DNA of 64,000 nucleotides from Sulfuricurvum sp. (GCA_028714915.1 JAQTLL010000005.1:193730-257729); one strand, 5' to 3'; counted from the stretch's first letter, positions 16,875 through 40,803 are shown. A program made the numbers and translations. Notes: generated by a model not told the origin, from the letters alone.

Positions 16875-17837
16875 TTATTTTCTCTTAGTGTCAATTTGAC
16901 AGCACAACTCTACTGATGCAATCCGAAAAGCAATGGAGTTTTGGAAAATAAGAGGATGTGAATACTGACATGTTACAATCCCCTCACAGGGTGAAAGCAT
17001 TTTTTCGAGCTTTTTTCCACTCAATGCATCCATAATTACCCCGACAACTTCCCCTTTTTTGATAGGTGAACCACAAGCTACTTGAGAAATAAAGATTCCT
17101 GCACGAGAGGCTTTGAGAACGGTAATTCGATTAGGGTCTAAGATATTACTCTTTCGTCCCTCAAAAACGTAAAAATCAAGCATATTCCGCTTAGAGAGAA
17201 ATCTCACTATTGCGGTATGAACTTCATCGCTTATACTCTGATCAATTGACCCATTTTTACCAAAAACAATCGAAAATGCTTTGGTTTCCCACAGTTGCCA
17301 GTTGTACTGAAGCATAGCAGTTTCAACCGGTTCATGCGGACGGTAATGGACGAAACCCATCCCTAAATCTTTGACGCACTCCAAGTCTTCATATCCGCTT
17401 TGGATCAATTTTACATACGGGAGACACATCCCCTGATCACGCCTGCCCTCTAAAATAATCCCATAATCATACCCTTTGAGCTCACCAAAAAGCTGCGATG
17501 CAATGCGCTGAGTCGTTTCACCTTGCGCGTATCCTGGGAACATCATATTGAGATCCGTTTTATCGAGTGGCCAATTTTTTTCTCCCATATTAAGAGCATA
17601 CGCATTGACCGCAGGAATAATAAGAATACGCCCAATAATTTTTCCCTCTTCTTCTTTGGTGCGCAGATACTCTACCAATCCTGATGCTACATAGAGCTGA
17701 TTGATATGATCCCCGCTCATGGCTCCGATGATAGCAACGGAAGGTCCTTTGGACTTTTCTTCACCAAATAAAAAACCTTCAATACGCAAAGGGGCTCGGT
17801 TGGGAGATTCAAGAGTTACTATATCAAATCGTCTCAT
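16875..17837 (-). CDS. AstE/AspA-like M14-fold protein, degenerate active site
   Basis: Aligns with the upstream paralogue, but SGIHGDELEG becomes GAMSGDHINQ, DLNRIFPG becomes DLNMMFPG, and AIDIHSS becomes GIILEGR. Confidence 0.7.
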   Translation of the reverse strand: MRRFDIVTLESPNRAPLRIEGFLFGEEKSKGPSVAIIGAMSGDHINQLYVASGLVEYLRTKEEEGKIIGRILIIPAVNAYALNMGEKNWPLDKTDLNMMFPGYAQGETTQRIASQLFGELKGYDYGIILEGRRDQGMCLPYVKLIQSGYEDLECVKDLGMGFVHYRPHEPVETAMLQYNWQLWETKAFSIVFGKNGSIDQSISDEVHTAIVRFLSKRNMLDFYVFEGRKSNILDPNRITVLKASRAGIFISQVACGSPIKKGEVVGVIMDALSGKKLEKMLSPCEGIVTCQYSHPLIFQNSIAFRIASVELCCQIDTKRK

Positions 17838-18772
17838 TGTTTTTCTCCAAAAATTCGTCCAAGCAGCGAGCCCTCATACACGATCGGATACGCTCTGATA
17901 GTAAAAAGCATCCCCCCAATGGGAGCAATGACCTCATCCATAACCTCACCACTGAGCGCACTCACGATGTGCCCGACAACCGAACCTTTTTCGATAATCT
18001 GGCAATGTTCGATGACAGGGACAAACAATCCGGGACACGCAGCATTAAGGTACGCGACTTCCCCTTCATGCGACTGCATCGGAAAACGAACATCCAGCAG
18101 TTCAATATCTAAAATTCCTTCACATGCCATCAAATTTAACAGTCCATCAAGTAATTGCTGCCCATACGCTTTACCCAAGCGCATCCCAACACCCATCTCT
18201 ACCACCAGCGTTTTTGTTCCGATGGTATTCATCGCATGGGCAAATGTTGACTCCAAAACCGTTACCGCATCATGAACCCAAACAAAATCAATATTTAATA
18301 GATTAGCAAGCGGAACAAGTACATCTTCTTGGGATTTTGCGATACGTACCTGCGGAATTTCACGTAAAAATATATTGCTGGAGTGGATGTCTATTGCCAA
18401 ATCGCTCCCTCTCATTGCATTGACCACCCCATCGGCAATTTGTGCAGGGAGAAAATCATTTTTGCTCCCTGGAAAAATTCGATTCAAATCAACATCGTAA
18501 AAAGGGATAGAGCGGGTAATACTATCTAGCCCCAACGAGTTGATTGCAGGATATATATCGATTATTCCCAAAATTTTATCCGGATTATTACGCAACCACT
18601 GACCAAGCAAGAAACAAACATACTGTCCCTCCAGCTCATCACCATGGATACCGCTCACAATAGAAATACGCTTTGTGCTTTTTTTACCCTTATAACGGCA
18701 ACGCTGAATCCTAAAAGACTCCCCTACCGGAAGCTCTATGGTAAATACTTCTTCGATTAAACCCATATTCAT
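17834..18772 (-). CDS. succinylglutamate desuccinylase/aspartoacylase (AstE/AspA, M14-fold) zinc hydrolase
   Basis: HGDE (HxxE zinc motif), DLNRIFPG, and a second His in DIHS. 4-nt overlaps with both neighbouring ORFs. Confidence 0.8.
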   Translation of the reverse strand: MNMGLIEEVFTIELPVGESFRIQRCRYKGKKSTKRISIVSGIHGDELEGQYVCFLLGQWLRNNPDKILGIIDIYPAINSLGLDSITRSIPFYDVDLNRIFPGSKNDFLPAQIADGVVNAMRGSDLAIDIHSSNIFLREIPQVRIAKSQEDVLVPLANLLNIDFVWVHDAVTVLESTFAHAMNTIGTKTLVVEMGVGMRLGKAYGQQLLDGLLNLMACEGILDIELLDVRFPMQSHEGEVAYLNAACPGLFVPVIEHCQIIEKGSVVGHIVSALSGEVMDEVIAPIGGMLFTIRAYPIVYEGSLLGRIFGEKQ

Positions 18773-19476
18773 CCTTGCGATTGTAACGTTTGCTCAGTCT
18801 CTTTTACTGATATATTTTCTTGAATAACTCGATTAATTACTCCGTTCACTGCTTCAAGAGCTTTAGGAATATCAGATGAAGTAATTTGAAGCGGTTGATA
18901 ATGATGATTGAGCCGTCTGGCAATCACATTCATCGCTTCGAGTTCAGCATTGACAAGATCAATACCGTCATACAGTCTTAAAATCAAATCAAAGCGTTCA
19001 ATTTGCTGACCCAAACGGATAAAATGGTAGGCTTTAGGCCGTCCCAATTCCGAGGAAAAAATACCTAAAATAAGTGCAAAATGATCAATCATCTCTTCTA
19101 AAGTAGTAGGACTAACGACACTTTCCCGTCCTGCTACAATATGATTAAAAATTTTATTTAGGGTCGAAAATCCACGTTCATCCAATAAATGGCGCGTTTC
19201 GATTGCATTTTCTCTAGCCCATGTGATAATCAACTCAATGCTTGCGCCATGCTCTCCATAAACCCCCTGTTTCAAAAAATCAAGGGCATTGTTATACTCA
19301 ATCTCAATTCCCAATTTTGCATAGAGTTTGCGCCCATCATCCACATCACGATCGATGACATAATCATAACTGTTGACAAGTTCACGTAAAAGAGTTTCAG
19401 CACGCTGAACGTACCGCCCAAACCAATAAAGTCTTTGCGCCGTATTAACAGAAATAGCCACACCGTTCGTCATCAT
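18769..19476 (-). CDS. alpha-E domain protein (COG2307/DUF403-like), short form
   Basis: AQRLYWFGRYVQRAETLLREL matches the alpha-E signature (LYW.GRY.ERAE). ATG 19476-19474 overlaps the TGA of the ATP-grasp gene. An alternative ATG lies at 19491. Confidence 0.75.
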   Translation of the reverse strand: MMTNGVAISVNTAQRLYWFGRYVQRAETLLRELVNSYDYVIDRDVDDGRKLYAKLGIEIEYNNALDFLKQGVYGEHGASIELIITWARENAIETRHLLDERGFSTLNKIFNHIVAGRESVVSPTTLEEMIDHFALILGIFSSELGRPKAYHFIRLGQQIERFDLILRLYDGIDLVNAELEAMNVIARRLNHHYQPLQITSSDIPKALEAVNGVINRVIQENISVKETEQTLQSQG

Positions 19477-20837
19477 AATTCCACCACCCATGTATCTTTG
19501 AATCCGCCGCCTTGAGACGAATTGACGAGGTAATTACCCTCTTCCATTGCATAACGAGTCAATCCACCCATGCTCACACTTACTTCTTCTCCATAGATGA
19601 CGTAAGCACGCAAATCAGCTTTTCGAGGGAGAATTTTCCCTTCTATCATACAAGGTAAATCATAAAATTCAATGACCTCTTGAGCAATAAAACGACGAGG
19701 ATTTTCTAAAATCATCTCTATAATATTCGCACGCTCTTGGGGAGTCAAACGATTGCCAAACAATACTCCATACCCGCCAGCTTCCGCAACATCTTTAATA
19801 ACTAATTTGTCAATATTTGCCAAAACATATTCACGATCTTTTTCATAATAAGGGAGATAGGTCGGTGCATTTTTAAGCAAAGGTTCTTCATCCAAATAAT
19901 ACTTCACCATTTGCGGGACAAAATAATAAATACCTTTATCATCCGCAACACCGTTTCCGATACTGTTCATAATGGCCACATTACCAGCTCGATACGCACT
20001 GGCAAGATGGGGAACACCAATCAAACTCTCTTCATCAAACTCTTCGGGATCTAAAAAATCATCATCAAGCCGACGGTATATCGCTCCGACACGTTGACGC
20101 TCACCGTTGTAAACACATAAAAACACTTCATTATTTTCTACCACCAAATCCTCGCCCAATGCAAGGGTAGCGCCGGTAATTTTTGCCAAATAACTGTGTT
20201 CATAATAGGCAGAATTGTATCGTCCGGGTGTCAAAACGACATTGAGACCGCCCGTATTGACATATTTCATAGCTGCTTTGAGCTGATCACCGTATTGTTT
20301 GATCTTCGAAATTTTCATCGACTCAAAAAATTCAGGATAGGTGTGGCGGAAGGCACGACGGATAGTGAGGGGATAACTGACACCACTGGGAACACGCAGG
20401 TTATCTTCAAGAATTACCCACTCCCCGCTCACACTGTCTTTTACCAAATCAATACCGCTAATATGCGTTCTAATCCCCCGAGAAGGAACAACTCCCATGA
20501 AAGTGGGGAGAAAACCAACTGCTGAATCAATGTATTCGCGAGGAACAATTCCATCTTTAATAATACGCTGTTCACCGTAAACATCATTCAAAAAGGCATT
20601 TAATGCTTTGACACGCTGAACAATGCCGGCTTCGAGATGATCAAACTCTTTTTTGGGGATAATGCGGGGAATCATATCAAAAGGAAAAGAGCGCTCAATA
20701 AAATTCCCCTCTTTAAAGAGGTTAAAATTAACTGCATTAGCCTCCAAAAAATCTTTAAACTCAGGGATTTTACTTTTATCAACGCTATCAAAAATATCAT
20801 AAAAATTTTGTAACTCTGGACTCACAGGCTCAATCAT
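19473..20837 (-). CDS. circularly permuted type-2 ATP-grasp protein (COG2308, DUF404/DUF407-like)
   Basis: 454 aa. The size, its position directly upstream of an alpha-E gene, and segments such as GIDLVKD..GEWVILEDNLRVPSG and GGYGVLFG fit this family as I remember it. Confidence 0.75.
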   Translation of the reverse strand: MIEPVSPELQNFYDIFDSVDKSKIPEFKDFLEANAVNFNLFKEGNFIERSFPFDMIPRIIPKKEFDHLEAGIVQRVKALNAFLNDVYGEQRIIKDGIVPREYIDSAVGFLPTFMGVVPSRGIRTHISGIDLVKDSVSGEWVILEDNLRVPSGVSYPLTIRRAFRHTYPEFFESMKISKIKQYGDQLKAAMKYVNTGGLNVVLTPGRYNSAYYEHSYLAKITGATLALGEDLVVENNEVFLCVYNGERQRVGAIYRRLDDDFLDPEEFDEESLIGVPHLASAYRAGNVAIMNSIGNGVADDKGIYYFVPQMVKYYLDEEPLLKNAPTYLPYYEKDREYVLANIDKLVIKDVAEAGGYGVLFGNRLTPQERANIIEMILENPRRFIAQEVIEFYDLPCMIEGKILPRKADLRAYVIYGEEVSVSMGGLTRYAMEEGNYLVNSSQGGGFKDTWVVEL

Positions 20838-20999
20838 AAGTACCCTTTGTGAAAAGATAGGATTAGCTCTATCATATCCTAAAGTAATCTCAAGGATTGC
20901 TTAAAAAAAAAGTAATTTTGATTTTTAGATAAAAAAAAGGAAGAAAGAACTCACATCAAACTCCATTTTAAATGGGCTTGATACGATGAGCGGTGTTAT

Positions 21000-22643
21000 T
21001 TATTCTGTTTTGAATTGACGCAATTGATCATTAAGGGCTAAGGAGGTTTGTGTAAGCTCTTTCATCTCACCATTAATTGCTTCGACTGACTCGATAGCAC
21101 CATTAAGGCTTTGATCCATTCGGTTGATTTCTCGAATAACATGTTCAATACTTACTGTGGTAGTTCCAAGCGTTTGAAGTGTTCTGTGCATAGCATCTCC
21201 GGTCTTATTCATAGTACTAACGGTTTCATCAATTTGATGTTTAACATCTGAAGATACGGTGTTTAAATTTTTAATATTTTGAGCATTGCGATTCATTTTA
21301 TCGCTTGCATCACCGATAGACTGGACAATAACACTAATAGTTGAATTAATTTCCGTGAGGCTTTTTTGGGTACGTTCAGCCAATTTTCGTACTTCATCGG
21401 CTACAACCGCAAATCCTCGCCCATGTTCTCCAGCACGTGCAGCTTCAATCGCTGCATTGAGTGCTAGCAAATTGGTTTGATCTGCAATATCTCCGATCAC
21501 AACCAACACCCCTTTAATCTGAGTGGCATCGGAGTTTAGCTGATTTAAGTCTTCTACCAAAGAGGATTCCATCTCAGCAGCATGGCTAATTTTTTCAATC
21601 ATAATGGTAACACTTTGATTTGAAGCATTCAAATTTTCTTGTGCATTTTCAATCTCTGATTTAACTTCATTTGCTTCCTGAATCATTGCCTGAATTAACT
21701 GATTAATCTGATCACCATTTTGTGACGCTAGACGCATATCTTTAGAATTGCTGCGTAAACTTTCAAGCATAATCGAAAAGTTACTCTGAATTTTATCGGC
21801 TACCTCTCTGTTGAGGGATGAGCTGTGTTTAGAGCTGTGCAATACCCCTTTTGTAGAAGCAATCATTCTACCGATACTTTGGAATATTTTTCCAATCTCG
21901 TCATCACCATTACGGCTATTGATAAAGGTAAAATCATGCTGTTCATCAACATACGCAATAGTCTCTTGAAGAGAATGAATAGATTTTTGTATCATCACCA
22001 CAATCATCATACTCAAAATAACAATAACACCAACAAATAACAAACTTACGAAAATAAGTATATTTCGATATGAACTTAATGTCTTATCAAAAGAAGCTAA
22101 ATTTTCATCTAACTTTTTATTTGAAAATGCAGTAAGTGCTGAAAGTTCATTTTTGGTTTTTACCGCAACTGAGTTAAATGAACTGACCGCATCAACACGA
22201 TCTTCAAGAACATTGGTATCATCCGTAAATGTCTCAATCATTGATCTGCCCATAGTATTCATACTTTTCAAACGAGTACGAATATTGTCTACAATGGGTT
22301 TGAGCTCTCCCATTCCGTCATGTTTTGTAAATGTATCAAGCTCTTTCATATCGCTGTCAAGTTTTTCTTGAATAATACTCACGGATTTTTCATAATCGGA
22401 TTCAAGTGCCATTTGGGATGCTGAAGCAGTGAGTAAAATATTTTGCATTTGAGCAAGATTACTCGCAATATCGTTTGAGACAATAATCAATCGAAGTTCA
22501 CGTTCTTTGAAGCTATTAAAACTCTCTTTGGATGATGATAATGCGCTAATACTCACAATACTAATGATAACTAAAACCGTGACACTCAGCGCCACAATGA
22601 GCCAAATTTTGGCTCGAATACTCATCTGTTCAAACATACCCAT
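21000..22643 (-). CDS. methyl-accepting chemotaxis protein
   Basis: Highly conserved signalling hairpin [38 protein letters not shown]-terminal TM, periplasmic domain, second TM. Confidence 0.9.
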
Positions 22644-22660
22644 TTTTAAATCCTTAATAA

Positions 22661-24124
22661 TTAATAGCTAACGTTGAAAAGCAAATAATAGTTCTTTAAT
22701 TTATCAAGCTGGGAACCATATCCAGGTGATGTTAACACCGTTGGTGCACCGATTTGCATACCGCTACCGCTGTAATCGTAGTCAATAAATTGAGCGCCTG
22801 TACGTAGATACGCATAACGGTTAATTGGCTGGATGTAGTATGCTTCAATCGCATCACCACGAGTTGCCAACTTGTTGGTTACATCATTTGAACCTTGAGT
22901 AAAACTAAACCAATTTTGGCTACCGTGATTGTATTCAAGTCCGATACGTGGGTTATTGAGCATTTCACTACTAAATGTGTAACGTCCTCCCATCCAGAAG
23001 GCATGCCCTTTTTTATCAGAAGTATCACCAAAAGTTGACGTTAAAAGTCCAACGTCATATCCTGTATCAGCAACTCCGTCACCATTTATATCAAATTGGC
23101 TTAATGTACCATTTGGTTTAGAAACTGATATTGCATAGTGAGCAAATAAATCAAGATTGGTATCTGCAAGATTTGTGAATTCAACCATTGCGGTATACAA
23201 ACTCACATCACCAATATTTTTATTTTGACCTTGAACATTTGAATTTGAAACTACATCAGTCGCTTTAACCGCACTCACTTGCACCAATGAACCAGCGATT
23301 CCAAGTCCTGCATCTAAAAAGGCTCCAACCACTTTTGTATCGGCGATTCCGCCGGAAGCTCCAACGTAACTAGCTCCAGTATTTTGCTGGTATCCTTTGC
23401 CATAACCAAAACGTAATGCCATATCAGGAATACTGGTGATTTTTGAGAGTCCAACAGTCGCAACGACACCATCGGCTCCACCATCAAAACTGAGTGCAGA
23501 GTAGGTTGATTTACGAACAGTATTATCTTTGAACTGGTGAGATGGGCCATCTGAACTCGGTTGACGACCAATAGTCAAGGCTACAGGAACGTTACCTTTA
23601 AGAACTGTCCAATCGACGTAGGCACGATCAACAAAGACTGAGCTGTCACTCGGTCGACGACCTTGCATCGGGTCCATTCCTGAATAGGTAAAACCGCTAC
23701 CATCATCTGCCCAATTTTTGTACATCACGACGCGACCGGTAAATTTCATATCATCGGTAATAACAGAGGACATATTAAGTCTCAAACGATTTGACCATAC
23801 ATCATTATTTGAACTTTTTATACCGTCTGCTGTGGTACGCTTGAATGAATCAACACGGGTTCTAAAATCGACACCCCAATTAATCTTATTTACCATAGAT
23901 GCGGTTTCAACTTTATCAATACGCTCTTCAAGTTCATCTACACGAGCAATTTCTTGCTTGCCTACTTGTGCAGTTTGTTGTTTAGACATTTGTTCATTTT
24001 GAGCTTTTTGTAATGCTTCAATTTTACTTTTTAACTCATCAATTTGAGCCTGAAATGAACTGTCAGCTGCGTATACGCTAACAACAAGAGAAGCAAGGGC
24101 ACTTAGTACAATAGTTTTTTTCAT
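22661..24124 (-). CDS. outer-membrane beta-barrel (porin-like) protein with N-terminal coiled coil, DUF3373-like
   Basis: Signal peptide ...SVYA, the coiled coil [21 protein letters not shown], alternating beta-strand pattern, and a C-terminal ...LLFNVSY aromatic terminus typical of OMPs. Confidence 0.55.
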
Positions 24125-24556: not shown

Positions 24557-25342
24557 TTATCCGTTTTTGAGTTTTTTTAGCGCACCTTCTACATCATCCT
24601 GACGCATGAGCGATTCGCCGACCAAGAATGCATCCACGCCCGCTTTGCTTAGATCTTCCAACTGACCGTGTTCATAGATTCCACTTTCAGCAACAATAAT
24701 TTTGCCGTTTGGAATCAAAGGGATGAGATCATAACTCAGATTCATATTCATCTCAAATGTCTGAAGATTACGGTGATTGATTCCAATAATATCCGCACCC
24801 GCATAAATCGCTTTGGTGAGTTCACCTTTATCATGAATTTCAACCAATGCTTCCATCCCTAGATGGCGCGTGTAGTTTAACAGCTCTTTGAGCTCACTTT
24901 TAGAAAGTGCTGCCGCAATAAGGAGAACAAAATCAGCTCCGTAAACAAGTGCTTCGAGGAGCTGATATTTGGAAATGATAAAATCTTTACGTAAAAGTGG
25001 GACTCCGACATAACGACGAATTTCGGCTAAATAATCCAAATGCCCTTGGAAAAAATGAGGCTCGGTCAAAATTGAAATAGCATTCGCACCGCCACGCTCA
25101 TACGCTTGCGCTATCGCTACAGGATCGAAATCCTCACGAATAATGCCACGCGAAGGGCTCGCTTTTTTAACTTCTGAGATGATACGGTACGGCTCATCAG
25201 CAGTTGCCGTCAAAAACGGACGTACATCACGCGGAGCACGCGCATTAAATGCCAAAGAACGTCCCAGCCACTCCATACTAAACTTGGCTTCACGCTCTTT
25301 TAAATCTTCTTTTGTTCTTTTGATGATGTCGTCTAGTATCAT
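24557..25342 (-). CDS. trpC: indole-3-glycerol phosphate synthase
   Basis: [28 protein letters not shown], and IGINHRNL near the C-terminal half. Confidence 0.9.
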
Positions 25343-34232: not shown

Positions 34233-36065
34233 ATGATTCAAATTAATAACCTCACCAAAAGCTACGGAACACGAATATTGTTTGAGAATCTAAATCTCAA
34301 ACTTTCCGCAGGTCAGAAAATCGGTTTCGTCGGGCGTAACGGTTCAGGGAAATCAACCCTCTTTAAAATCATTTTGGGGGAAGAGGCTTACGATGATGGA
34401 GAGATACTGATTCCTAAAAATTACCGTATCGGAACATTACGCCAACACCTTCATTTTACCCATAAAACCGTCCGTGATGAATGTGCCTCCGTCCTTACGG
34501 GTGATGCCGAACATGAAGTATATCGGGTCGAAAAAATTCTTTTTGGACTAGGATTTACGCAAGAAGATTTAGATAAAGATCCCCTCAGCTTTTCAGGGGG
34601 GTATCAAATACGGCTCAATCTTGTCAAACTACTCGTCACTGAACCCAATCTGCTCTTGCTCGATGAACCGACCAACTATCTCGACATCGTCTCCTTGCGC
34701 TGGCTTGCCTCGTTTATTCGAGCATTTGAAGGAGAAGTCATCCTCATCACCCATGATCGTGATTTTATGGATTCTGTTTCTACTCATACGATGGGTCTGC
34801 GTCGCAGGGCTGTTTCCATACTCAAAGGCAACAGCAAAAAATACTATGCATTCATGGAACAAGAAGATGAGCTGTACGTAAAAACCAAAATTAATCATGA
34901 TAAAAAACGGGAAGAACTCATCGATTTTATCGCTCGGAACAAAGCCCGTGCCTCTACCGCAGTGATGGCGCAGTCCAAAGCTAAAGAGTTGGAAAAAATG
35001 GGGATAATGGAGAATCTCGTGGATGAAAAAGATTTAGCCTTCTCCTTTTCCTATCGCCCTACTCCCGCTAAAGTCATCATGGAGGTCAAAAATCTTTCGT
35101 TTGGTTACACTGCGGATGAATTGCTTTTTCAAAATCTCTCATTTATTTTGGAGACCAAAAAATGCCTCGCCATCATCGGTAAAAACGGCAAAGGGAAATC
35201 AACGCTTCTCAACACAATGGCCGGTGTTCTCAAACCTACCGGAGAAATAATTTCCCATCCCTCCACAGCCATTGCCCATTTCGGTCAAACCAACATTGAA
35301 CGACTGGATAAAAACAGTACGATAGCCGATGAAATTCAAAGTGCTGACAATACTCTCCAAAACGTCCGTGTCCGCTCCATCTGCGGAACGATGATGTTTA
35401 GCGGTGATGATGCCGATAAAAAAATCTCTATCCTCTCAGGGGGTGAACGAAGCCGTGTCATGTTAGGAAAAATTATCGCCACCCCTGCTAATCTCCTCTT
35501 TTTGGACGAACCGACCAACCACCTCGATATGCAATCCATTGACTCCCTATGTGATGCGCTCAAACGGTTTGAGGGCTCCGTCGTCATCGTTACCCATTCC
35601 GAGATGCTGTTGCGTGAACTCGCTGATCAGCTTATCATTTTCCGTGAGGGGGGTGCAGAGTTTTTTGACGGCGGATACGATGAGTTTTTAGAAAAAATAG
35701 GGTGGGATGAGGAGATAACCGATACCCCTAAGCCTGTCAAAGCAACCCAAAACAGTAATAAAAAAGAGCAAAAACAGCAGCGTGCGGAACTGATTCAAGA
35801 ACGCTCACGCCTCCTTAATCCTCTCAAAAAAGAGATTGACCATTGTGAGAACACGATTATGAAACTCGAAGATAAACTCAAAGAATCACATAAACAATTG
35901 ATTGTTTATTCTAATCAAGGTGATAGTGGTAAACTTCAAGAGCTCTCCAAAAGTATTTCCATGGATGAAAAAGAGATTGAAAACTTATTTGAGAGATTGG
36001 AAGCAGCAAGTAACGAATTTGAGCGTATCACCAAAGAGACCGATGAAAAACTCCAAGCCCTCTAA
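34233..36065 (+). CDS. ABC-F family ATPase (two ABC domains, C-terminal coiled coil)
   Basis: Two sets of Walker A (GRNGSGKST, GKNGKGKST), signature (FSGGYQIRL, LSGGERSRV) and Walker B (LLLLDEPTN, LLFLDEPTN). No TM domain. Confidence 0.85.
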   Translation: MIQINNLTKSYGTRILFENLNLKLSAGQKIGFVGRNGSGKSTLFKIILGEEAYDDGEILIPKNYRIGTLRQHLHFTHKTVRDECASVLTGDAEHEVYRVEKILFGLGFTQEDLDKDPLSFSGGYQIRLNLVKLLVTEPNLLLLDEPTNYLDIVSLRWLASFIRAFEGEVILITHDRDFMDSVSTHTMGLRRRAVSILKGNSKKYYAFMEQEDELYVKTKINHDKKREELIDFIARNKARASTAVMAQSKAKELEKMGIMENLVDEKDLAFSFSYRPTPAKVIMEVKNLSFGYTADELLFQNLSFILETKKCLAIIGKNGKGKSTLLNTMAGVLKPTGEIISHPSTAIAHFGQTNIERLDKNSTIADEIQSADNTLQNVRVRSICGTMMFSGDDADKKISILSGGERSRVMLGKIIATPANLLFLDEPTNHLDMQSIDSLCDALKRFEGSVVIVTHSEMLLRELADQLIIFREGGAEFFDGGYDEFLEKIGWDEEITDTPKPVKATQNSNKKEQKQQRAELIQERSRLLNPLKKEIDHCENTIMKLEDKLKESHKQLIVYSNQGDSGKLQELSKSISMDEKEIENLFERLEAASNEFERITKETDEKLQAL

Positions 36066-36765
36066 ACAACGGCTCGACCAACTCCTCACCAGTTTGGGAT
36101 ACGCAAGCCGCAGTGAGTCAAAAAAACTCATTTCTAGCGGTCTTGTCACCGTTGATGGAAAGTGTATCACCAAACCCGATTTCAAAGCATTTCATCACGA
36201 CGTAGCATTTGGAGGCGAACCCCTCGATGTGTGTGAGGGGATAGTTATTTTAATGAACAAACCGCTTGGTGTTGTCTGTTCCCATGATGACGGGGAAGGA
36301 AAACTCGTGTATTCTCTCCTTCCCTTAAGATGGCAAAAACGTGATCCAAAAATTTCCACTATCGGACGGCTCGACAAAGAGACAAGCGGACTGCTGCTGC
36401 TCACCGATGACGGGCAACTTCTTCATCGCCTCACATCGCCCAAATATCATATACCCAAACTCTACGAAGTGACACTGGATCGGCCATTAAACGGGAATGA
36501 AACGGATATTTTCGCAGCAGGAACGTTGATGCTAAACGGCGAAAAAAGCCCCTGCCTCCCCGCAAAATTGATAATCATTGATGATACACACGTGACATTG
36601 GAAATCACCGAAGGACGCTACCATCAAGTTCGACGGATGTTCGCGGCAGTCGGAAACCACGTCACGGCACTGCACCGTTCCCGCATTGGGGATTTAACCC
36701 TTGGGGATTTAATGTCTGGTGAATATCGACTGCTTGAGCGCAAAAACTTTCCTGAACTGCTCTAA
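36043..36765 (+). CDS. rsuA: RsuA/RluB-type pseudouridine synthase with S4 domain
   Basis: S4-like RLDQLLTSLGYASRSESKKLI, catalytic GRLDKETSGLLLLTDDG. Internal ATG 36043 is chosen because the track ORF would otherwise overlap the ABC-F gene by 164 nt. Confidence 0.8.
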   Translation: MKNSKPSKQRLDQLLTSLGYASRSESKKLISSGLVTVDGKCITKPDFKAFHHDVAFGGEPLDVCEGIVILMNKPLGVVCSHDDGEGKLVYSLLPLRWQKRDPKISTIGRLDKETSGLLLLTDDGQLLHRLTSPKYHIPKLYEVTLDRPLNGNETDIFAAGTLMLNGEKSPCLPAKLIIIDDTHVTLEITEGRYHQVRRMFAAVGNHVTALHRSRIGDLTLGDLMSGEYRLLERKNFPELL

Positions 36766-36766
36766 T

Positions 36767-39076
36767 CTACAGCTCTTTATTTTTTAGCCGAAGGGCATTT
36801 AAGATAACCGATACCGAACTGAAACTCATTGCCGCCGCCGCGATCATCGGGGAGAGTAAAATACCGAAAAAAGGATACAATATCCCCGCTGCAATCGGTA
36901 TCCCGATACTGTTGTAAAAAAATGCGAAAAAGAGATTCTGCCGAATGTTGTGCATTGTCGCACGGCTAAGACGGCGTGAGCGAACAATTCCTCGCAGATC
37001 CCCTTTGATAAGAGTAATCCCCGCGCTTTCCATCGCAACATCGGTTCCTGTCCCCATCGCAATTCCCACGTGAGCTTGTGCTAGCGCAGGGGCATCGTTA
37101 ATGCCATCTCCCGCCATAGCGACAATATGCCCCTCCATCTGAAGCCGTTTAACCGTTTTGGCTTTCTGCTGCGGCAGCACTTCTGCCTCCACCCGATCGA
37201 TCCCCAGTTTGGCGGCGACTGCTTCGGCAGTGATACGGCTATCCCCAGTCAGCATCACAACGGTTATCCCCTCATGGTGCAAATCCGAGATGGCTTCTGG
37301 GGTACCTGCTTTAATCGGATCAGCTACCCCAAGAATCCCCGTCGCTTCTGATTTGACGGCAAGAAACATCACACTCTCCCCCAAGCGGCGTAAACTGTCT
37401 GCCTGTACCAAAAGTGCCGAGGTATCAATCCCAAAACTCTCCATAAGTTTTAGATTTCCCAACGCAATCCGCTCTCCTTCCACGATGCCAACGACCCCTT
37501 TTCCCGTCACCGACTCGAAATTCTCTATTTCTACCGGGGACAATCCTCTCTCCTGCGCTGCATTGACAACCGCTCTAGCAAAGGGGTGTTCGCTGAAGCG
37601 TTCCAACGAGGCCGCCAAACGGACAACCGACGCTTCGTCCCACTTATTCCCCGCAATTACGGAGACCAGCTTCGGTTTTCCTTCAGTAAGAGTCCCCGTC
37701 TTATCAATGACAAGAATATCAATTTTTTCCATCATCTCCAGTGCTTCAGCATTTTTGATCAGGACACCCGCCCTTGCCCCTTTGCCGGTTCCGACCATGA
37801 TCGATATTGGAGTTGCCAATCCCAATGCACAAGGACAGGCAATGATTAAAACAGCTACAGCATTTATCAAAGCGTATGCCAGAGAAGGCTCAGGACCCCA
37901 TTGGTTCCAGACGACAAAGGTGATCAAGGCAATCATAATAACAGCAGGGACAAAATAACCAGATACCGTATCGGCGGTTTTTTGAATCGGCGCACGGGAA
38001 CGCTGTGCCTGCGAGACCATCGCCACAATTTGGGAAAGCAGCGTATCAACCCCCACTTTTTGCGCCCACATTACAAGGCTTCCTGTCGTATTGATCGTCG
38101 CACCGATAAGATGCTCTCCCTTTTTTTTGGATACAGGAATCGGTTCACCGGTCACCATCGACTCATCCACATGGCTCTCCCCCTCGATCACTTCACCATC
38201 AACCGGAATTTTCTCACCCGGACGGATACGGAGTCTATCCCCCGGTTGCACTGCCTTGATGAGAATATCTTCTTCACTGCCGTCTTCTCGGATAATATGT
38301 GCGATCTTCGGAGAAAGCCCCAGCAACAAACGAATCGCATCATTGGTACGGCTTCGAGCTCGAAGCTCTAACACCTGTCCTAACAAAACCAGCGCCGTGA
38401 TAACCGATGCCGCTTCAAAATAAACCGGAACAACCTCCATTTGCATCGATAGATTTTCCGGAAAAATATTCGGAAACAAAACGGCAATGGCACTGTAGAT
38501 CCACGCGCTCCCTGTCCCCAACGCGATGAGGGTAAACATATTGAGACTGCGGTTGCGGACCGATTCCCATGCTCGAAGGTAAAAGATCCATCCCCCCCAC
38601 CATACGACGGGTACGGAGAGAAACATTTCAAACCACTGACGGGTCTTGGGATCAACAATCACGTCAAATTGTCCGGGAAAAAACTCAGAACCCATCGCAC
38701 TGATCAATACCACGACCGATAACAGCATGCTGATCCAAAAACGGCGTTTCATCGCATCGTATTCTGTCGTATCATCTTCGAGCTGCAATGTTTTTGGTTC
38801 GAGCGCCATACCGCATTTTGGACAGCTTCCCGGCCCTTTTTGCTCCACTTCAGGATGCATGGGACACGTGTAGAGAACACTCTCAGCTGCATCGATTAAA
38901 CAGCTATGATTGTAACACGATGAGGGGGAGGGTTCAGAGGGGAGAAAATTTTCAGGATGCTCTAAAAATTTGTGCTGACAATGCCCAGAGCAAAACAGGT
39001 AATGTTGGTCTTTATAATCGCTTTGGTACGGTGTAGAGGGGGAAACCTCCATACCGCAGACAATATCTTTAACCAT
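36767..39076 (-). CDS. copA: copper-translocating P1B-type ATPase with TRASH/YHS-like and CxxC-rich N-terminal domains
   Basis: CPC ([12 protein letters not shown]), [15 protein letters not shown], and SEHP in the N-domain. The N-terminus has VCGMEV...FCSGHC (TRASH/YHS type) and [17 protein letters not shown], not a GMTCxxC HMA domain. Confidence 0.9.
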
Positions 39077-39116
39077 TTTCCCCCCTTTCCATACTTTTTT
39101 AAAGGCGACTGGTATT

Positions 39117-39151
39117 ATTGTACACTATCAACAATAGAAAATTGGTACAAT
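39117..39151. promoter_or_regulatory. inverted repeat ATTGTAC-N21-GTACAAT in the copA / rluA-like divergent intergenic region
   Basis: ATTGTAC at 39117-39123 and GTACAAT at 39145-39151. On the copA strand this reads TTGTAC..N..TACAAT, which could also be promoter elements. The function is only a guess. Confidence 0.25.
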
Positions 39152-39178
39152 TCCCTATATATTCTGTAAAGAGGCTGT

Positions 39179-39865
39179 TTGAGCGCATATCGCAAAATTT
39201 TTCCCATCATCTATGAAAATCTCTCCTTTATTATTACCGTCAAAAGCAGCGGAATAAATTTTCACTCCGAAGAGGAAGCAGGATTCGTTGTCCAAGTAAG
39301 TCAACAAATGGGCATTCCCCTTTTCCCCGTCCATCGCCTCGATAAAATGACATCAGGATTAATAATCTTCGCCAAAACCTCGGAAGTTGCAGCGATGTTT
39401 GGGAAAATGTTTGAAAATAGAGAAGTTGAGAAATATTATCTTGCCATCTCGATGCGCAAACCGAAGAAAAAACAAGGGTGGGTCAAAGGGGACATGACAA
39501 GTGCCAGACGAGGAGATTATAAGCTCCTCGCTACCATGGACAATCCTGCCATCACACAGTTTGTCAGCTGTGCCTTACGCACCCACGAGCGCTTTTTCCT
39601 CATCAAACCCCATACGGGAAAAACCCATCAAATCCGTGTTGCCCTTAAAAGTCTCGGTTCTCCCATCGCAGGAGATGAACGATACGCGCAAGCCGATGTT
39701 GCACGCAAAGAAGAGAGAGGGTATCTGCACGCTTATGCACTGCGGTTTCATCTCAACGGTGAGGAATTCAGTTTTGTTTCACCGCCCAATGAAGGGGAGC
39801 GGTTTGTCAGCGATGCGTGTAAAGTACAGATTGAAATGTGGTGTATGCCGTGGGACTTATTTTGA
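39179..39865 (+). CDS. RluA-family pseudouridine synthase (no S4 domain)
   Basis: HRLDKMTSGLIIFAK catalytic motif and GKTHQIRVAL. TTG start with AAGAGG upstream. Confidence 0.8.
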   Translation: MSAYRKIFPIIYENLSFIITVKSSGINFHSEEEAGFVVQVSQQMGIPLFPVHRLDKMTSGLIIFAKTSEVAAMFGKMFENREVEKYYLAISMRKPKKKQGWVKGDMTSARRGDYKLLATMDNPAITQFVSCALRTHERFFLIKPHTGKTHQIRVALKSLGSPIAGDERYAQADVARKEERGYLHAYALRFHLNGEEFSFVSPPNEGERFVSDACKVQIEMWCMPWDLF

Positions 39866-40803
39866 AAATTTTTACCACCGAACCTCTCATCCATATCCTG
39901 TCATGGGCACATGAAACACTCAAAGAATCCAATACCCTGACCTTCGAAGTGCTCAATCCTGACATCACAGGCGGAACCTATGCCGGTGAGAGCATTACCA
40001 TCGACAATCAAACCTACCTTTATCGAGGATACAAAGCATGGAGTGATTTGGGAGAGATTCTTTTTTGCCGTCTTCTTACACCGACAATAGCCTCTGCACA
40101 TACCGTCCAAATTACCTATGAAAAACTCGACCTCAGTGACTCCTTTCATCACAGTGATGCGAAAGAAGAAAAATATGGGGCAGACTCACGCTTTGCCGCA
40201 CTACACAAAAATGAAGAACCTGCCTTTCTCTCTCCGTACCTGCGTGCACTGCGAAGTGTTCATGTCGGAGAAAAAAAACGGATTCTTAATCTCGGAATTA
40301 ACACAGGAGATGAGTTTGACCTTATCCGTCAAATTTTGTCCCATGAAGAGTATCTCAAGCTTGAACTCGTTGGAATCGACCATTCCCAAACGGCTATTGC
40401 TCACGCACGAAAGCGATTTTCGGAAGGAAATGCAACCTTTTACATCCATGACATCAATGATCTCGCCATCCTAGATTTAGGACGCTTCGACCTCATCATC
40501 ACCATCGGAACACTTCAAAGTCCCGGAATCGATTTCAAACTGCTCTTTATGAAGCTCGTCCAAGAGTATCTGACACCCAATGGAGCAATGATTTTAGGAT
40601 TTCCAAACTGTCGATGGATGGGAGGGGAGATGATCTATGGGGCCAAAGCGCCCAATTATCCTTATTCTGAGATGACACTACTTTACAAAGATGTTTATTA
40701 CTGCAAAAAATATTTACAACAAAAGAAATTTCGAGTGACCCTTACAGGAAAGGACTATGTCTTTTTAACCGGAACAAAAATAAGGCAGTCCCTAATTATC
40801 TAA
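39838..40803 (+). CDS. class I SAM-dependent methyltransferase
   Basis: Motif I ILNLGINTGDE and a later DLIITIGTL. Start uncertain: GTG 39838, or TTG 39862, which overlaps the upstream TGA as TTGA. Confidence 0.65.
   Translation: MVYAVGLILKIFTTEPLIHILSWAHETLKESNTLTFEVLNPDITGGTYAGESITIDNQTYLYRGYKAWSDLGEILFCRLLTPTIASAHTVQITYEKLDLSDSFHHSDAKEEKYGADSRFAALHKNEEPAFLSPYLRALRSVHVGEKKRILNLGINTGDEFDLIRQILSHEEYLKLELVGIDHSQTAIAHARKRFSEGNATFYIHDINDLAILDLGRFDLIITIGTLQSPGIDFKLLFMKLVQEYLTPNGAMILGFPNCRWMGGEMIYGAKAPNYPYSEMTLLYKDVYYCKKYLQQKKFRVTLTGKDYVFLTGTKIRQSLII

Follow-up and report, generated by a model that had tools for sequence, protein, structure and literature searches.

This study concerns four adjacent genes in a 64,000-nucleotide (nt) stretch of DNA from Sulfuricurvum sp. 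(GCA_028714915.1 JAQTLL010000005.1:193730-257729), the whole of which is referred to here as the window, with positions counted from its first letter. The four open reading frames (ORFs) are predicted to encode a circularly permuted (cp) ATP-grasp ligase (ORF1), an alpha-E protein (ORF2) and two paralogues of the AstE/AspA fold (ORF3 and ORF4). All four were borne out on the minus strand at 20837-16875, with the same coordinates as in a first-pass annotation of this DNA, and they are listed in Table 1. Reading the sequence at the junctions directly, we found that the TGA stop codon of ORF1 (19475-19473) is overlapped by the ATG of ORF2 (19476-19474), and that ATGA overlaps join ORF2 to ORF3 (18772-18769) and ORF3 to ORF4 (17837-17834). 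These stop/start overlaps of coupled minus-strand genes uphold the proposal of the first-pass annotation that the genes form one operon. ORF3 may in fact begin at its second ATG, at 18766, since its closest homologues, including a 100%-identical protein, are called at 310 amino acids (aa) and since an AAGGA Shine-Dalgarno sequence is better placed for that start. A 2-nt gap would then replace the 4-nt overlap between ORF2 and ORF3. ORF4, too, has a 100%-identical counterpart, and both counterparts belong to a Sulfuricurvum sp. MAG at NCBI, in line with an origin of the window in Sulfuricurvum (Campylobacterota). Whichever starts are used for ORF2 and ORF3, the four genes are tightly coupled, lying no more than 2 nt apart. 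The operon is preceded by an intergenic region of 162 nt and followed by a gap of 89 nt, and matches to internal terminators or promoters within its genes were no commoner than expected from shuffled sequence.

Table 1. Genes of the operon and the element upstream of it, in window positions
Feature	Position	Strand	Description
ORF1	20837-19473	-	454 aa, circularly permuted ATP-grasp
ORF2	19476-18769	-	235 aa, short alpha-E; alternative start 19491 gives 240 aa
ORF3	18772-17834	-	312 aa, AstE/AspA-fold; possible start 18766 gives 310 aa
ORF4	17837-16875	-	320 aa, AstE/AspA-fold, ORF3 paralogue
Upstream element TTTAAGCAA-N13-TTTAGGATA	20875..20905	-	38-68 nt before ORF1 ATG

A scan with an ORF3 profile, covering one genome per GTDB species, returned at least 583 loci. 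Gene-order counts use the best 80 of these, 78 of which contain enough sequence to be informative. In 78 of 78 informative loci the order ORF1-ORF2-ORF3-ORF4 is kept on one strand, and in 41 of them ORF3 and ORF4 overlap by 4 or 8 nt. Because identical order and strand recur in every informative locus and in several phyla (Campylobacterota, Firmicutes, Bacteroidota and Actinomycetota, besides one archaeal MAG), the gene arrangement is far beyond chance. The loci come from Sulfuricurvum, Sulfurimonas, Arcobacter and Sulfurospirillum and, at 50-55% identity, from many Lachnospiraceae, Clostridia, Ruminococcus, Bacteroidales, Prevotella and Paludibacteraceae, with single loci in a Coriobacteriia genome, an Acidaminococcaceae metagenome-assembled genome (MAG) and a Methanomassiliicoccaceae MAG.

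Pfam profile searches with the four window proteins agreed with the families to which they had earlier been assigned, while a comparison with NCBIfam equivalogs showed that no window protein approaches an equivalog cutoff. ORF1 matches CP_ATPgrasp_2 (E-value (E) 6e-140) and CP_ATPgrasp_1 (E 1.5e-121) with full profile coverage, and it is approximately 50% identical to the structural-genomics protein PDB 3N6X (E 9e-115). It retains every residue that is invariant in 74 orthologues, in the motifs LEDNLRvPSG, GNGvADDKGIYYFVP, EAGGYGV, RKADlR and NSSQGGGFKDTW. In the fusions of ATP-grasp and alpha-E domains (grasp-alphaE), 89 of the 145 invariant residues are gone, including those of LEDNLR, ADDK and AGGYG. 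Given that ORF1 keeps the invariant motifs, unlike these inactive fusions, it is predicted to be an active-type, catalytically competent cp-ATP-grasp amidoligase. ATP-grasp enzymes form amides by way of an acyl-phosphate. A homologous ATP-grasp protein from the Anbu operon of Yersinia has been observed to release phosphate from ATP (PMC6376114).

ORF2 matches the Alpha-E family (E 2e-19) over profile positions 5-166 of 294 only, which is the N-terminal 55% or so of the profile, and it carries AQRLYWFGRYVQRAE. The alpha-E motifs LYWxGRYxxR and GxxiERxD are conserved among its orthologues. Since 77 of 78 orthologues are equally short (216-253 aa), the length of ORF2 is a trait of its subfamily and not a truncation; more distant clusters encode a full-length alpha-E protein of 315-318 aa. 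An AlphaFold 2 model of ORF2, with a predicted local distance difference test (pLDDT) score of 81, is an all-helical bundle, for which a search of the PDB gave no significant structural neighbor (best E 0.5).

ORF3 and ORF4 both match AstE_AspA_cat (E 4e-18 and 9e-11, respectively) and are full-length paralogues, with 23% identity over 303 residues (E 4e-26). Enzymes of the AstE/AspA fold cleave an amide using a zinc ion held by an H-E-H triad and a glutamate base, and they grip the leaving amino acid by its free alpha-carboxylate. Known substrates are succinyl-Glu for AstE, N-acetyl amino acids for AspA and ACY3, and N-acetyl-2,4-diaminobutyrate (N-acetyl-DABA) for DoeB. The catalytic set of ORF3 consists of HGDE (H43, E46), NR (N97, R98), DIH (H130) and VVEMG (E192). 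In a joint alignment of the 80 loci, every one of the 80 ORF3 orthologues has H43, E46, R87, N97, R98, H130 and E192. These residues align with the zinc triad, the general-base glutamate and the carboxylate-binding R/NR of DoeB and CphZ, and also with the motifs of PDB 3CDX and 2QJ8. ORF3 is therefore best described as a putative zinc amidohydrolase of the AstE/AspA fold (clan MC, M14-like) that is predicted to be catalytically competent. A further acidic residue, E174, is found in 78 of 80 ligase-linked orthologues and is variable in stand-alone AstE pairs.

The same positions of ORF4 read SGDH, NM, ILE and SIVFG, so that S, H, M, E and V take the place of H43, E46, R98, H130 and E192. In the joint alignment, His43, His130 or Glu192 occurs in 0 of 78 ORF4-type orthologues. 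Nevertheless, 50 positions of the ORF4 type are at least 90% conserved, including motifs of its own (ETTQRIA, SGYED, YNWQxW and NSIAxR), and its AlphaFold 2 model (pLDDT 80) has a complete AstE fold. A Foldseek search of the PDB with this model returned CphZ as the top match, along with DoeB, 3NA6, 2QJ8 and 3CDX, with E of approximately 1e-17 to 1e-18. Because the zinc-binding histidines and the catalytic glutamate are gone while the fold and its own motifs remain under selection, ORF4 appears to be a conserved pseudoenzyme, that is, a member of the fold but not an enzyme of the AstE/AspA family. The first-pass annotation had counted two hydrolases at this locus. Only ORF3 qualifies, given that the catalytic residues are intact in all 80 of its orthologues and in none of the 78 of ORF4.

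The operon of the window lacks a gene that most of its relatives possess. In 58 of the 78 informative loci, a gap of approximately 750-900 base pairs between ORF2 and ORF3 encodes a protein of approximately 260 aa, as is the case in every one of the 52 informative loci from outside Campylobacterota and in 6 from within this phylum. This protein matches Bact_transglu_N and Transglut_core and has Cys-His-Asp triad motifs, with GxCQ[DE] present in 55 of the 58. Since this transglutaminase-like gene sits within the cluster in 58 loci, the common form of the cluster is one of five genes, which encode a ligase, an alpha-E protein, a transglutaminase-like peptidase, an active AstE protein and a dead AstE protein. 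The fifth gene is missing from the window and from 20 other Campylobacterota loci, and neither a transglutaminase-like gene nor a second ligase was found in the window by tblastn or hidden Markov model searches. Thus, the window holds a reduced variant, and indeed the most reduced arrangement seen. The earlier suggestion that transglutaminase is absent and that M14 genes follow instead does not hold for the family, nor does a survey of the neighborhoods indicate that M14 genes replace transglutaminase: the AstE pair stands beside the transglutaminase-like gene and occupies the position of Anbu. The four window proteins gave no match to proteasome families, and around the 80 loci there is no fifth conserved family beyond the transglutaminase.

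Two of the clusters have features of their own. The Methanomassiliicoccaceae locus (L075, contig CAJJJM010000019.1) has the full five-gene cluster on an archaeal-binned contig, which stems either from horizontal acquisition by a methanogen of the gut or from an error in binning. In a Saccharofermentans MAG (L070:4582-8001), the gap from the alpha-E gene to the active AstE gene is 3.4 kb and contains an extra ORF of approximately 441 aa beyond the usual spacing.

In Arcobacter, Sulfurimonas and Halarcobacter, a trio of genes lies convergent to the cluster, right after ORF4. The trio encodes a transglutaminase, a CP_ATPgrasp+Alpha-E fusion of approximately 830 aa and a transglutaminase-DUF2126 amidoligase of approximately 1,120 aa, and it is located at L013:9848-16650 and in the equivalent regions of L018, L019, L021 and L023-L026. 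On the Sulfuricurvum kujiense-type contig (L081:1738-12577), the trio immediately precedes the cluster in the same direction, so that seven genes form one array, in which Sulku_1753 is the alpha-E gene. Since the trio directly adjoins the AstE-type unit, these arrangements suggest that the two cooperate. We take the trio to be of the type of Mycobacterium Rv2566-2569c. It has domain families in common with the operon, but its ATP-grasp is of the degenerate type and it is not found in the 64-kb window.

The AstE pair is also found apart from the ligase. A search of 1.8 billion representatives gave 72 clusters at E<=1e-30 and 468 at E<=1e-10, and we examined the genomic contexts of 8 distant representatives with 28-41% identity. 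Two of these (L082 and L089) are again clusters of ATP-grasp, alpha-E, transglutaminase, AstE and AstE genes, and in a third (L085) an AstE pair lies on a short contig. Tandem AstE-AstE pairs with no ligase nearby are present at L083:7001-9422, L086:7001-8941, L087:7001-8949 and L088:1811-3735. The pair of L083 is followed by a pyroglutamyl peptidase gene (Peptidase_C15) and that of L088 by a MatE gene, and those of L086 and L087 have no obvious partner. The first gene of the distant pairs keeps the catalytic set, except in L083, and the second gene always lacks the general-base glutamate, for which Q, M, R, V, L or Y is found instead. Decay of the second gene is graded, with the zinc ligands kept in L085, L086 and L089 but no longer present in L087, L088 or the gut clades; in the lineage of the window, ORF4 has lost the carboxylate-binding arginine as well (R98M). 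Tandem pairs with a Glu-less second member thus recur down to approximately 30% identity, both with and without a ligase, and ORF3 and ORF4 overlap in most loci. A catalytic subunit and a Glu-less partner thus make up a conserved design, an old module that forms an obligate unit.

One pair departs from this pattern by reciprocal decay. At L083:7001-8844, the zinc ligands of the first gene are replaced by R, A and R while its glutamate is kept, and the second gene keeps H-E-H but has Val in place of Glu, such that either both members are dead or they form a composite active site. We also considered a metagenomic protein of 841 aa, P0504, as a fusion of ORF3 and ORF4 and rejected it, as it is instead a distant tandem of two AstE-like domains. 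Its first domain has the full catalytic set, and its second has HGNE, NR and DIH but apparently no general-base glutamate.

The closest described relative of this arrangement is the COG2308-COG2307-COG1305-Anbu operon, for which Iyer et al. (2009) reportedly predicted a role in peptide ligation or tagging. Such a peptide-ligase/tagging system has also been predicted by Valas and Bourne (2008, PMC3235984). The two have in common an active-type ligase gene followed by an overlapping alpha-E gene and, in most relatives of the window operon, a transglutaminase-like peptidase gene next in line. They differ in that Anbu is absent here and a catalytic and a dead AstE protein take its place, in that the alpha-E protein of the window is a short form (approximately 220 aa in the family), and in that the lineage of the window also lacks the transglutaminase-like gene. 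The AstE catalytic/pseudoenzyme pair at the Anbu position, the short alpha-E protein and the transglutaminase-less lineage are thus the three departures from the described operon. The first-pass annotation had also held that this system has no biochemical assignment, in keeping with which the papers on Anbu operons call their hypotheses unconfirmed (PMC6376114, PMC5666114). Among the papers that could be searched, we found none that joins ATP-grasp to succinylglutamate desuccinylase and transglutaminase, or to aspartoacylase, in this way, although a mention in Iyer et al. 2009 is possible.

By sequence and structure, the best relatives of the AstE pair are DoeB, CphZ, AstE, ACY3 and AspA. Among solved structures, ORF3 and ORF4 are closest in sequence to DoeB/EutE (PDB 6TWL/6TWM), 2QJ8, 3CDX and 3NA6 (E 1e-13 to 1e-6); this group has the catalytic motifs in common with ORF3 as well as a conserved 'LE' that aligns with E174. 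However, ORF3 and ORF4 score only 39.1 and 40.9 bits, respectively, against the NCBIfam model TIGR02994. They are therefore not DoeB, given that the cutoff of this model is 402.7 bits, and there are no ectoine genes nearby. CphZ (PDB 8EIN/8EIP) likewise resembles ORF3 in its AstE/AspA fold, zinc H-E-H triad, general-base glutamate and R/NR clamp. It acts downstream of an ATP-grasp-containing synthetase whose polymer is cut by a separate peptidase, in an order of ligase, endopeptidase and dipeptide hydrolase (PMC9974463), and its substrate is beta-Asp-Arg/Lys (PMC9974463). Assignment to CphZ calls for an alignment to AbCphZ with identity above 30% and coverage above 70%, the Arg pocket D222/E223 and the Asp-binding residues D181/K366 (PMC9974463). 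The match of ORF3 to CphZ is marginal and covers the C-terminal domain only (E 7.8e-5 to 2e-3), falling short of this identity and coverage. Furthermore, CphZ is a homodimer of active subunits, and there is no cyanophycin synthetase or cyanophycinase here.

With moderate confidence, we propose that the window operon is a reduced, transglutaminase-less form of the cp-ATP-grasp/alpha-E system combined with an active/dead AstE module, in which a conjugate made by ORF1 and ORF2 is hydrolysed by ORF3 and ORF4. With the aid of the alpha-E protein ORF2, ORF1 would convert a carboxylate into an acyl-phosphate at the expense of ATP and couple it to an amino acid through the alpha-amine of the latter. 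The resulting amide or isopeptide would have its C-terminal alpha-carboxylate free. R87, N97 and R98 of ORF3 would hold this carboxylate of the product while the zinc ion (at H43, E46 and H130) and E192 hydrolyse the amide and release the amino acid, and flux would presumably run from ligation to hydrolysis. ORF4 would be a non-catalytic partner, probably in a heterodimer with ORF3 that derives from the typical homodimer of the fold, and it might help to bind or present the substrate or might regulate ORF3. Where the fifth gene is present, its transglutaminase-like cysteine peptidase would cut the conjugate or polymer at an earlier step.

CphZ provides parallels for two parts of this mechanism. 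Its residues R102, N112 and R113 bind the C-terminal carboxylate (PMC9974463), and its E251A variant binds beta-Asp-Arg with a dissociation constant of 7.6 uM and does not cleave it (PMC9974463), which sets a precedent for a subunit such as ORF4 that binds without the glutamate. Because every characterised close relative of ORF3 acts on small N-acyl-amino acids or isopeptide dipeptides, the species that is hydrolysed is more likely to be a small conjugate, or to arise from the breakdown of a poly-amino acid as do the cyanophycin dipeptides cleaved by CphZ, than to be the tail of a protein. The pairing of a ligase with a hydrolase that had been suggested for this locus is thus a reasonable one. 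The further suggestion that acidic amino acids are added to a protein fares less well: there is no sign of acidic specificity, and the nearest relatives of known activity act on small molecules, from which they release DABA or Arg/Lys. The conserved acidic residue E174 of ORF3, taken with the basic residues that its relatives release, gives a hint on specificity that is only a lead.

Several points weigh against our proposal. The substrate of ORF3 need not be the product of the ligase and may differ from it, since AstE pairs occur with no ligase nearby in L083, L086, L087 and L088. No stable complexes were detected among the proteins of an Anbu-type operon (PMC6376114), and no ORF3-ORF4 fusion, which would have favored a heteromer, was found among the best 150 representatives. 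The R98M replacement in ORF4 of the window weakens a role as substrate-binding subunit in the Sulfuricurvum lineage. Finally, the missing transglutaminase could mean that the operon depends on genes outside the 64-kb window.

Protein tagging and de-tagging, in the manner of TTLL/CCP or RimK/RimB, is an unlikely alternative. Here ORF1 and ORF2 would add amino acids to a C-terminus or an acidic side chain, and ORF3 and ORF4 would trim them as a carboxypeptidase. Peptide tags reversed by peptidases are indeed what has been predicted in print for the parent system (PMC3495828, PMC5666114, citing Iyer 2009), and the R/NR carboxylate clamp of ORF3 is carboxypeptidase-like. The strong conservation of the ligase would suit a universal protein target, and the dead paralogue could act as a tag reader. 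However, all of the characterised AstE/AspA relatives that we found are small-molecule enzymes (PMC9974463). The likeness to TTLL/CCP and RimK/RimB lies in the combination of an ATP-grasp ligase with a dedicated reversing hydrolase and is one of analogy only, since in Pfam searches ORF1 has no TTL match and ORF3 has no match to Peptidase_M14 proper; the ligase is not of the TTL/RimK type, and the hydrolase is AstE_AspA, not an M14D CCP or a retropepsin. Moreover, neither the cluster nor its surroundings contain a conserved target gene, and no modified protein is known.

A second alternative, which we also consider improbable, is a sequential pathway in which ORF3 and ORF4 act first, cleaving an N-acylated compound or a dipeptide so that an amino acid or amine is set free, and the ATP-grasp enzyme then ligates this product into a peptide metabolite or nitrogen store. 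In its favor, AstE, DoeB and CphZ all serve in catabolism by releasing amino acids (PMC9974463), stand-alone AstE pairs adjoin peptide-salvage genes, such as the pyroglutamyl peptidase gene of L083, and related Anbu-type operons are induced by nitrogen limitation (PMC5666114, PMC6376114). Nevertheless, a gene order with the ligase first and the hydrolase last, together with the parallel to Anbu and transglutaminase, fits turnover of a product better, and the cluster has no conserved association with a transporter gene or with additional biosynthetic genes.

Least probable by far is chance adjacency, which the order kept in 78 of 78 informative loci refutes, or an anti-phage defence or mobile-element cargo module, for which a patchy phyletic spread suggestive of horizontal transfer (including the archaeal MAG) and a variable position within Sulfuricurvum genomes would speak, but against which stand the 0 PADLOC matches for the four proteins, the finding of only generic AstE matches of approximately 25% identity and no close homologues on plasmids, and the lack of mobility or defence genes among the conserved neighbors.

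The genes around the operon offer little further guidance. Clustering of the flanking ORFs across the 80 loci gave lineage-specific synteny only, with no recurrent family beyond the core genes, and no Pfam family occurs more than 6 times among the 90 genes that directly follow the cluster in non-Campylobacterota loci. Citrate synthase and isocitrate dehydrogenase were considered as conserved partners and set aside, as each occurs in 2 loci. A methyl-accepting chemotaxis protein (MCP) gene upstream and a GGDEF-EAL gene downstream had earlier been taken as a hint of a signalling context. This is strain-level synteny and is not conserved: trpC is directly upstream of ORF1 in most Sulfuricurvum loci, the MCP gene is there only in the window and in L007, and the GGDEF-EAL adjacency is confined to close relatives. 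On the S. kujiense-type contig, trpC, SCO1, MCP and GGDEF/EAL genes are contiguous and the AstE-type unit is located elsewhere. Since the unit changes place among Sulfuricurvum genomes, these signalling neighbors are incidental.

In the window, genes for the MCP and for a DUF3373 outer-membrane-like protein (21000-24124, minus strand) lie between trpC (24557-25342) and the operon. As trpC abuts ORF1 in most other Sulfuricurvum loci, this segment appears to be a local insertion or rearrangement. The GC content of the window is 0.47-0.49 at 36001-40000 and 0.34 at 1-4000, compared with approximately 0.40-0.42 elsewhere. Rfam searches of the window found no rRNA, and the sole match at the gathering threshold was one tRNA gene (6056-6128, minus strand).

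The element upstream of ORF1 (Table 1) is invariant across 8 aligned Sulfuricurvum loci, despite a difference in the upstream gene, which is either MCP or trpC. It probably represents the promoter region of the operon itself, although it departs from the sigma-70 consensus applied in a scan and was not called there. No Rfam match to a riboswitch or other RNA was found upstream of or inside the operon even at E<=1. An ORF of 13 codons that ends in ATGA at the start of ORF1 is not kept in related loci and is attributable to chance, and no small ORF that could encode a substrate peptide in cis is conserved beyond close relatives. A microviridin-like system for a ribosomally synthesized and post-translationally modified peptide is likewise disfavored as an explanation, as no precursor peptide gene was found beside the ligase gene.

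Many bacteria carry the cp-ATP-grasp/alpha-E system, which was first recognised in 2008-2009, and with the operon described here a question of approximately 15 years' standing is open to concrete experiments. The chemistry of AstE-type partners, hydrolysis of an amide beside a free C-terminal carboxylate, is well understood, and it therefore limits what the ligase can make. In its resemblance to CphZ E251A, the dead paralogue may offer a natural substrate trap, and the four-gene form is minimal and occurs in a genus with cultured representatives. The catalytic/pseudoenzyme pair is newly defined within the AstE/AspA family. Both of its members are annotated today as 'M14 family metallopeptidase', and hundreds of the genes so named cannot be peptidases. 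Tentatively, and with more doubt than attaches to our proposal as a whole, the operon might be a self-contained make-and-break cycle for an isopeptide-linked conjugate or short polymer, perhaps a cyanophycin-like nitrogen or stress reserve, with the dead subunit in a binding or regulatory role and the four-gene form as its minimal version, in gut anaerobes and sulfur-oxidising Campylobacterota alike. At least several hundred species have the five-gene form, abundant gut Lachnospiraceae and Bacteroidales among them, and a solved function would annotate many genomes.

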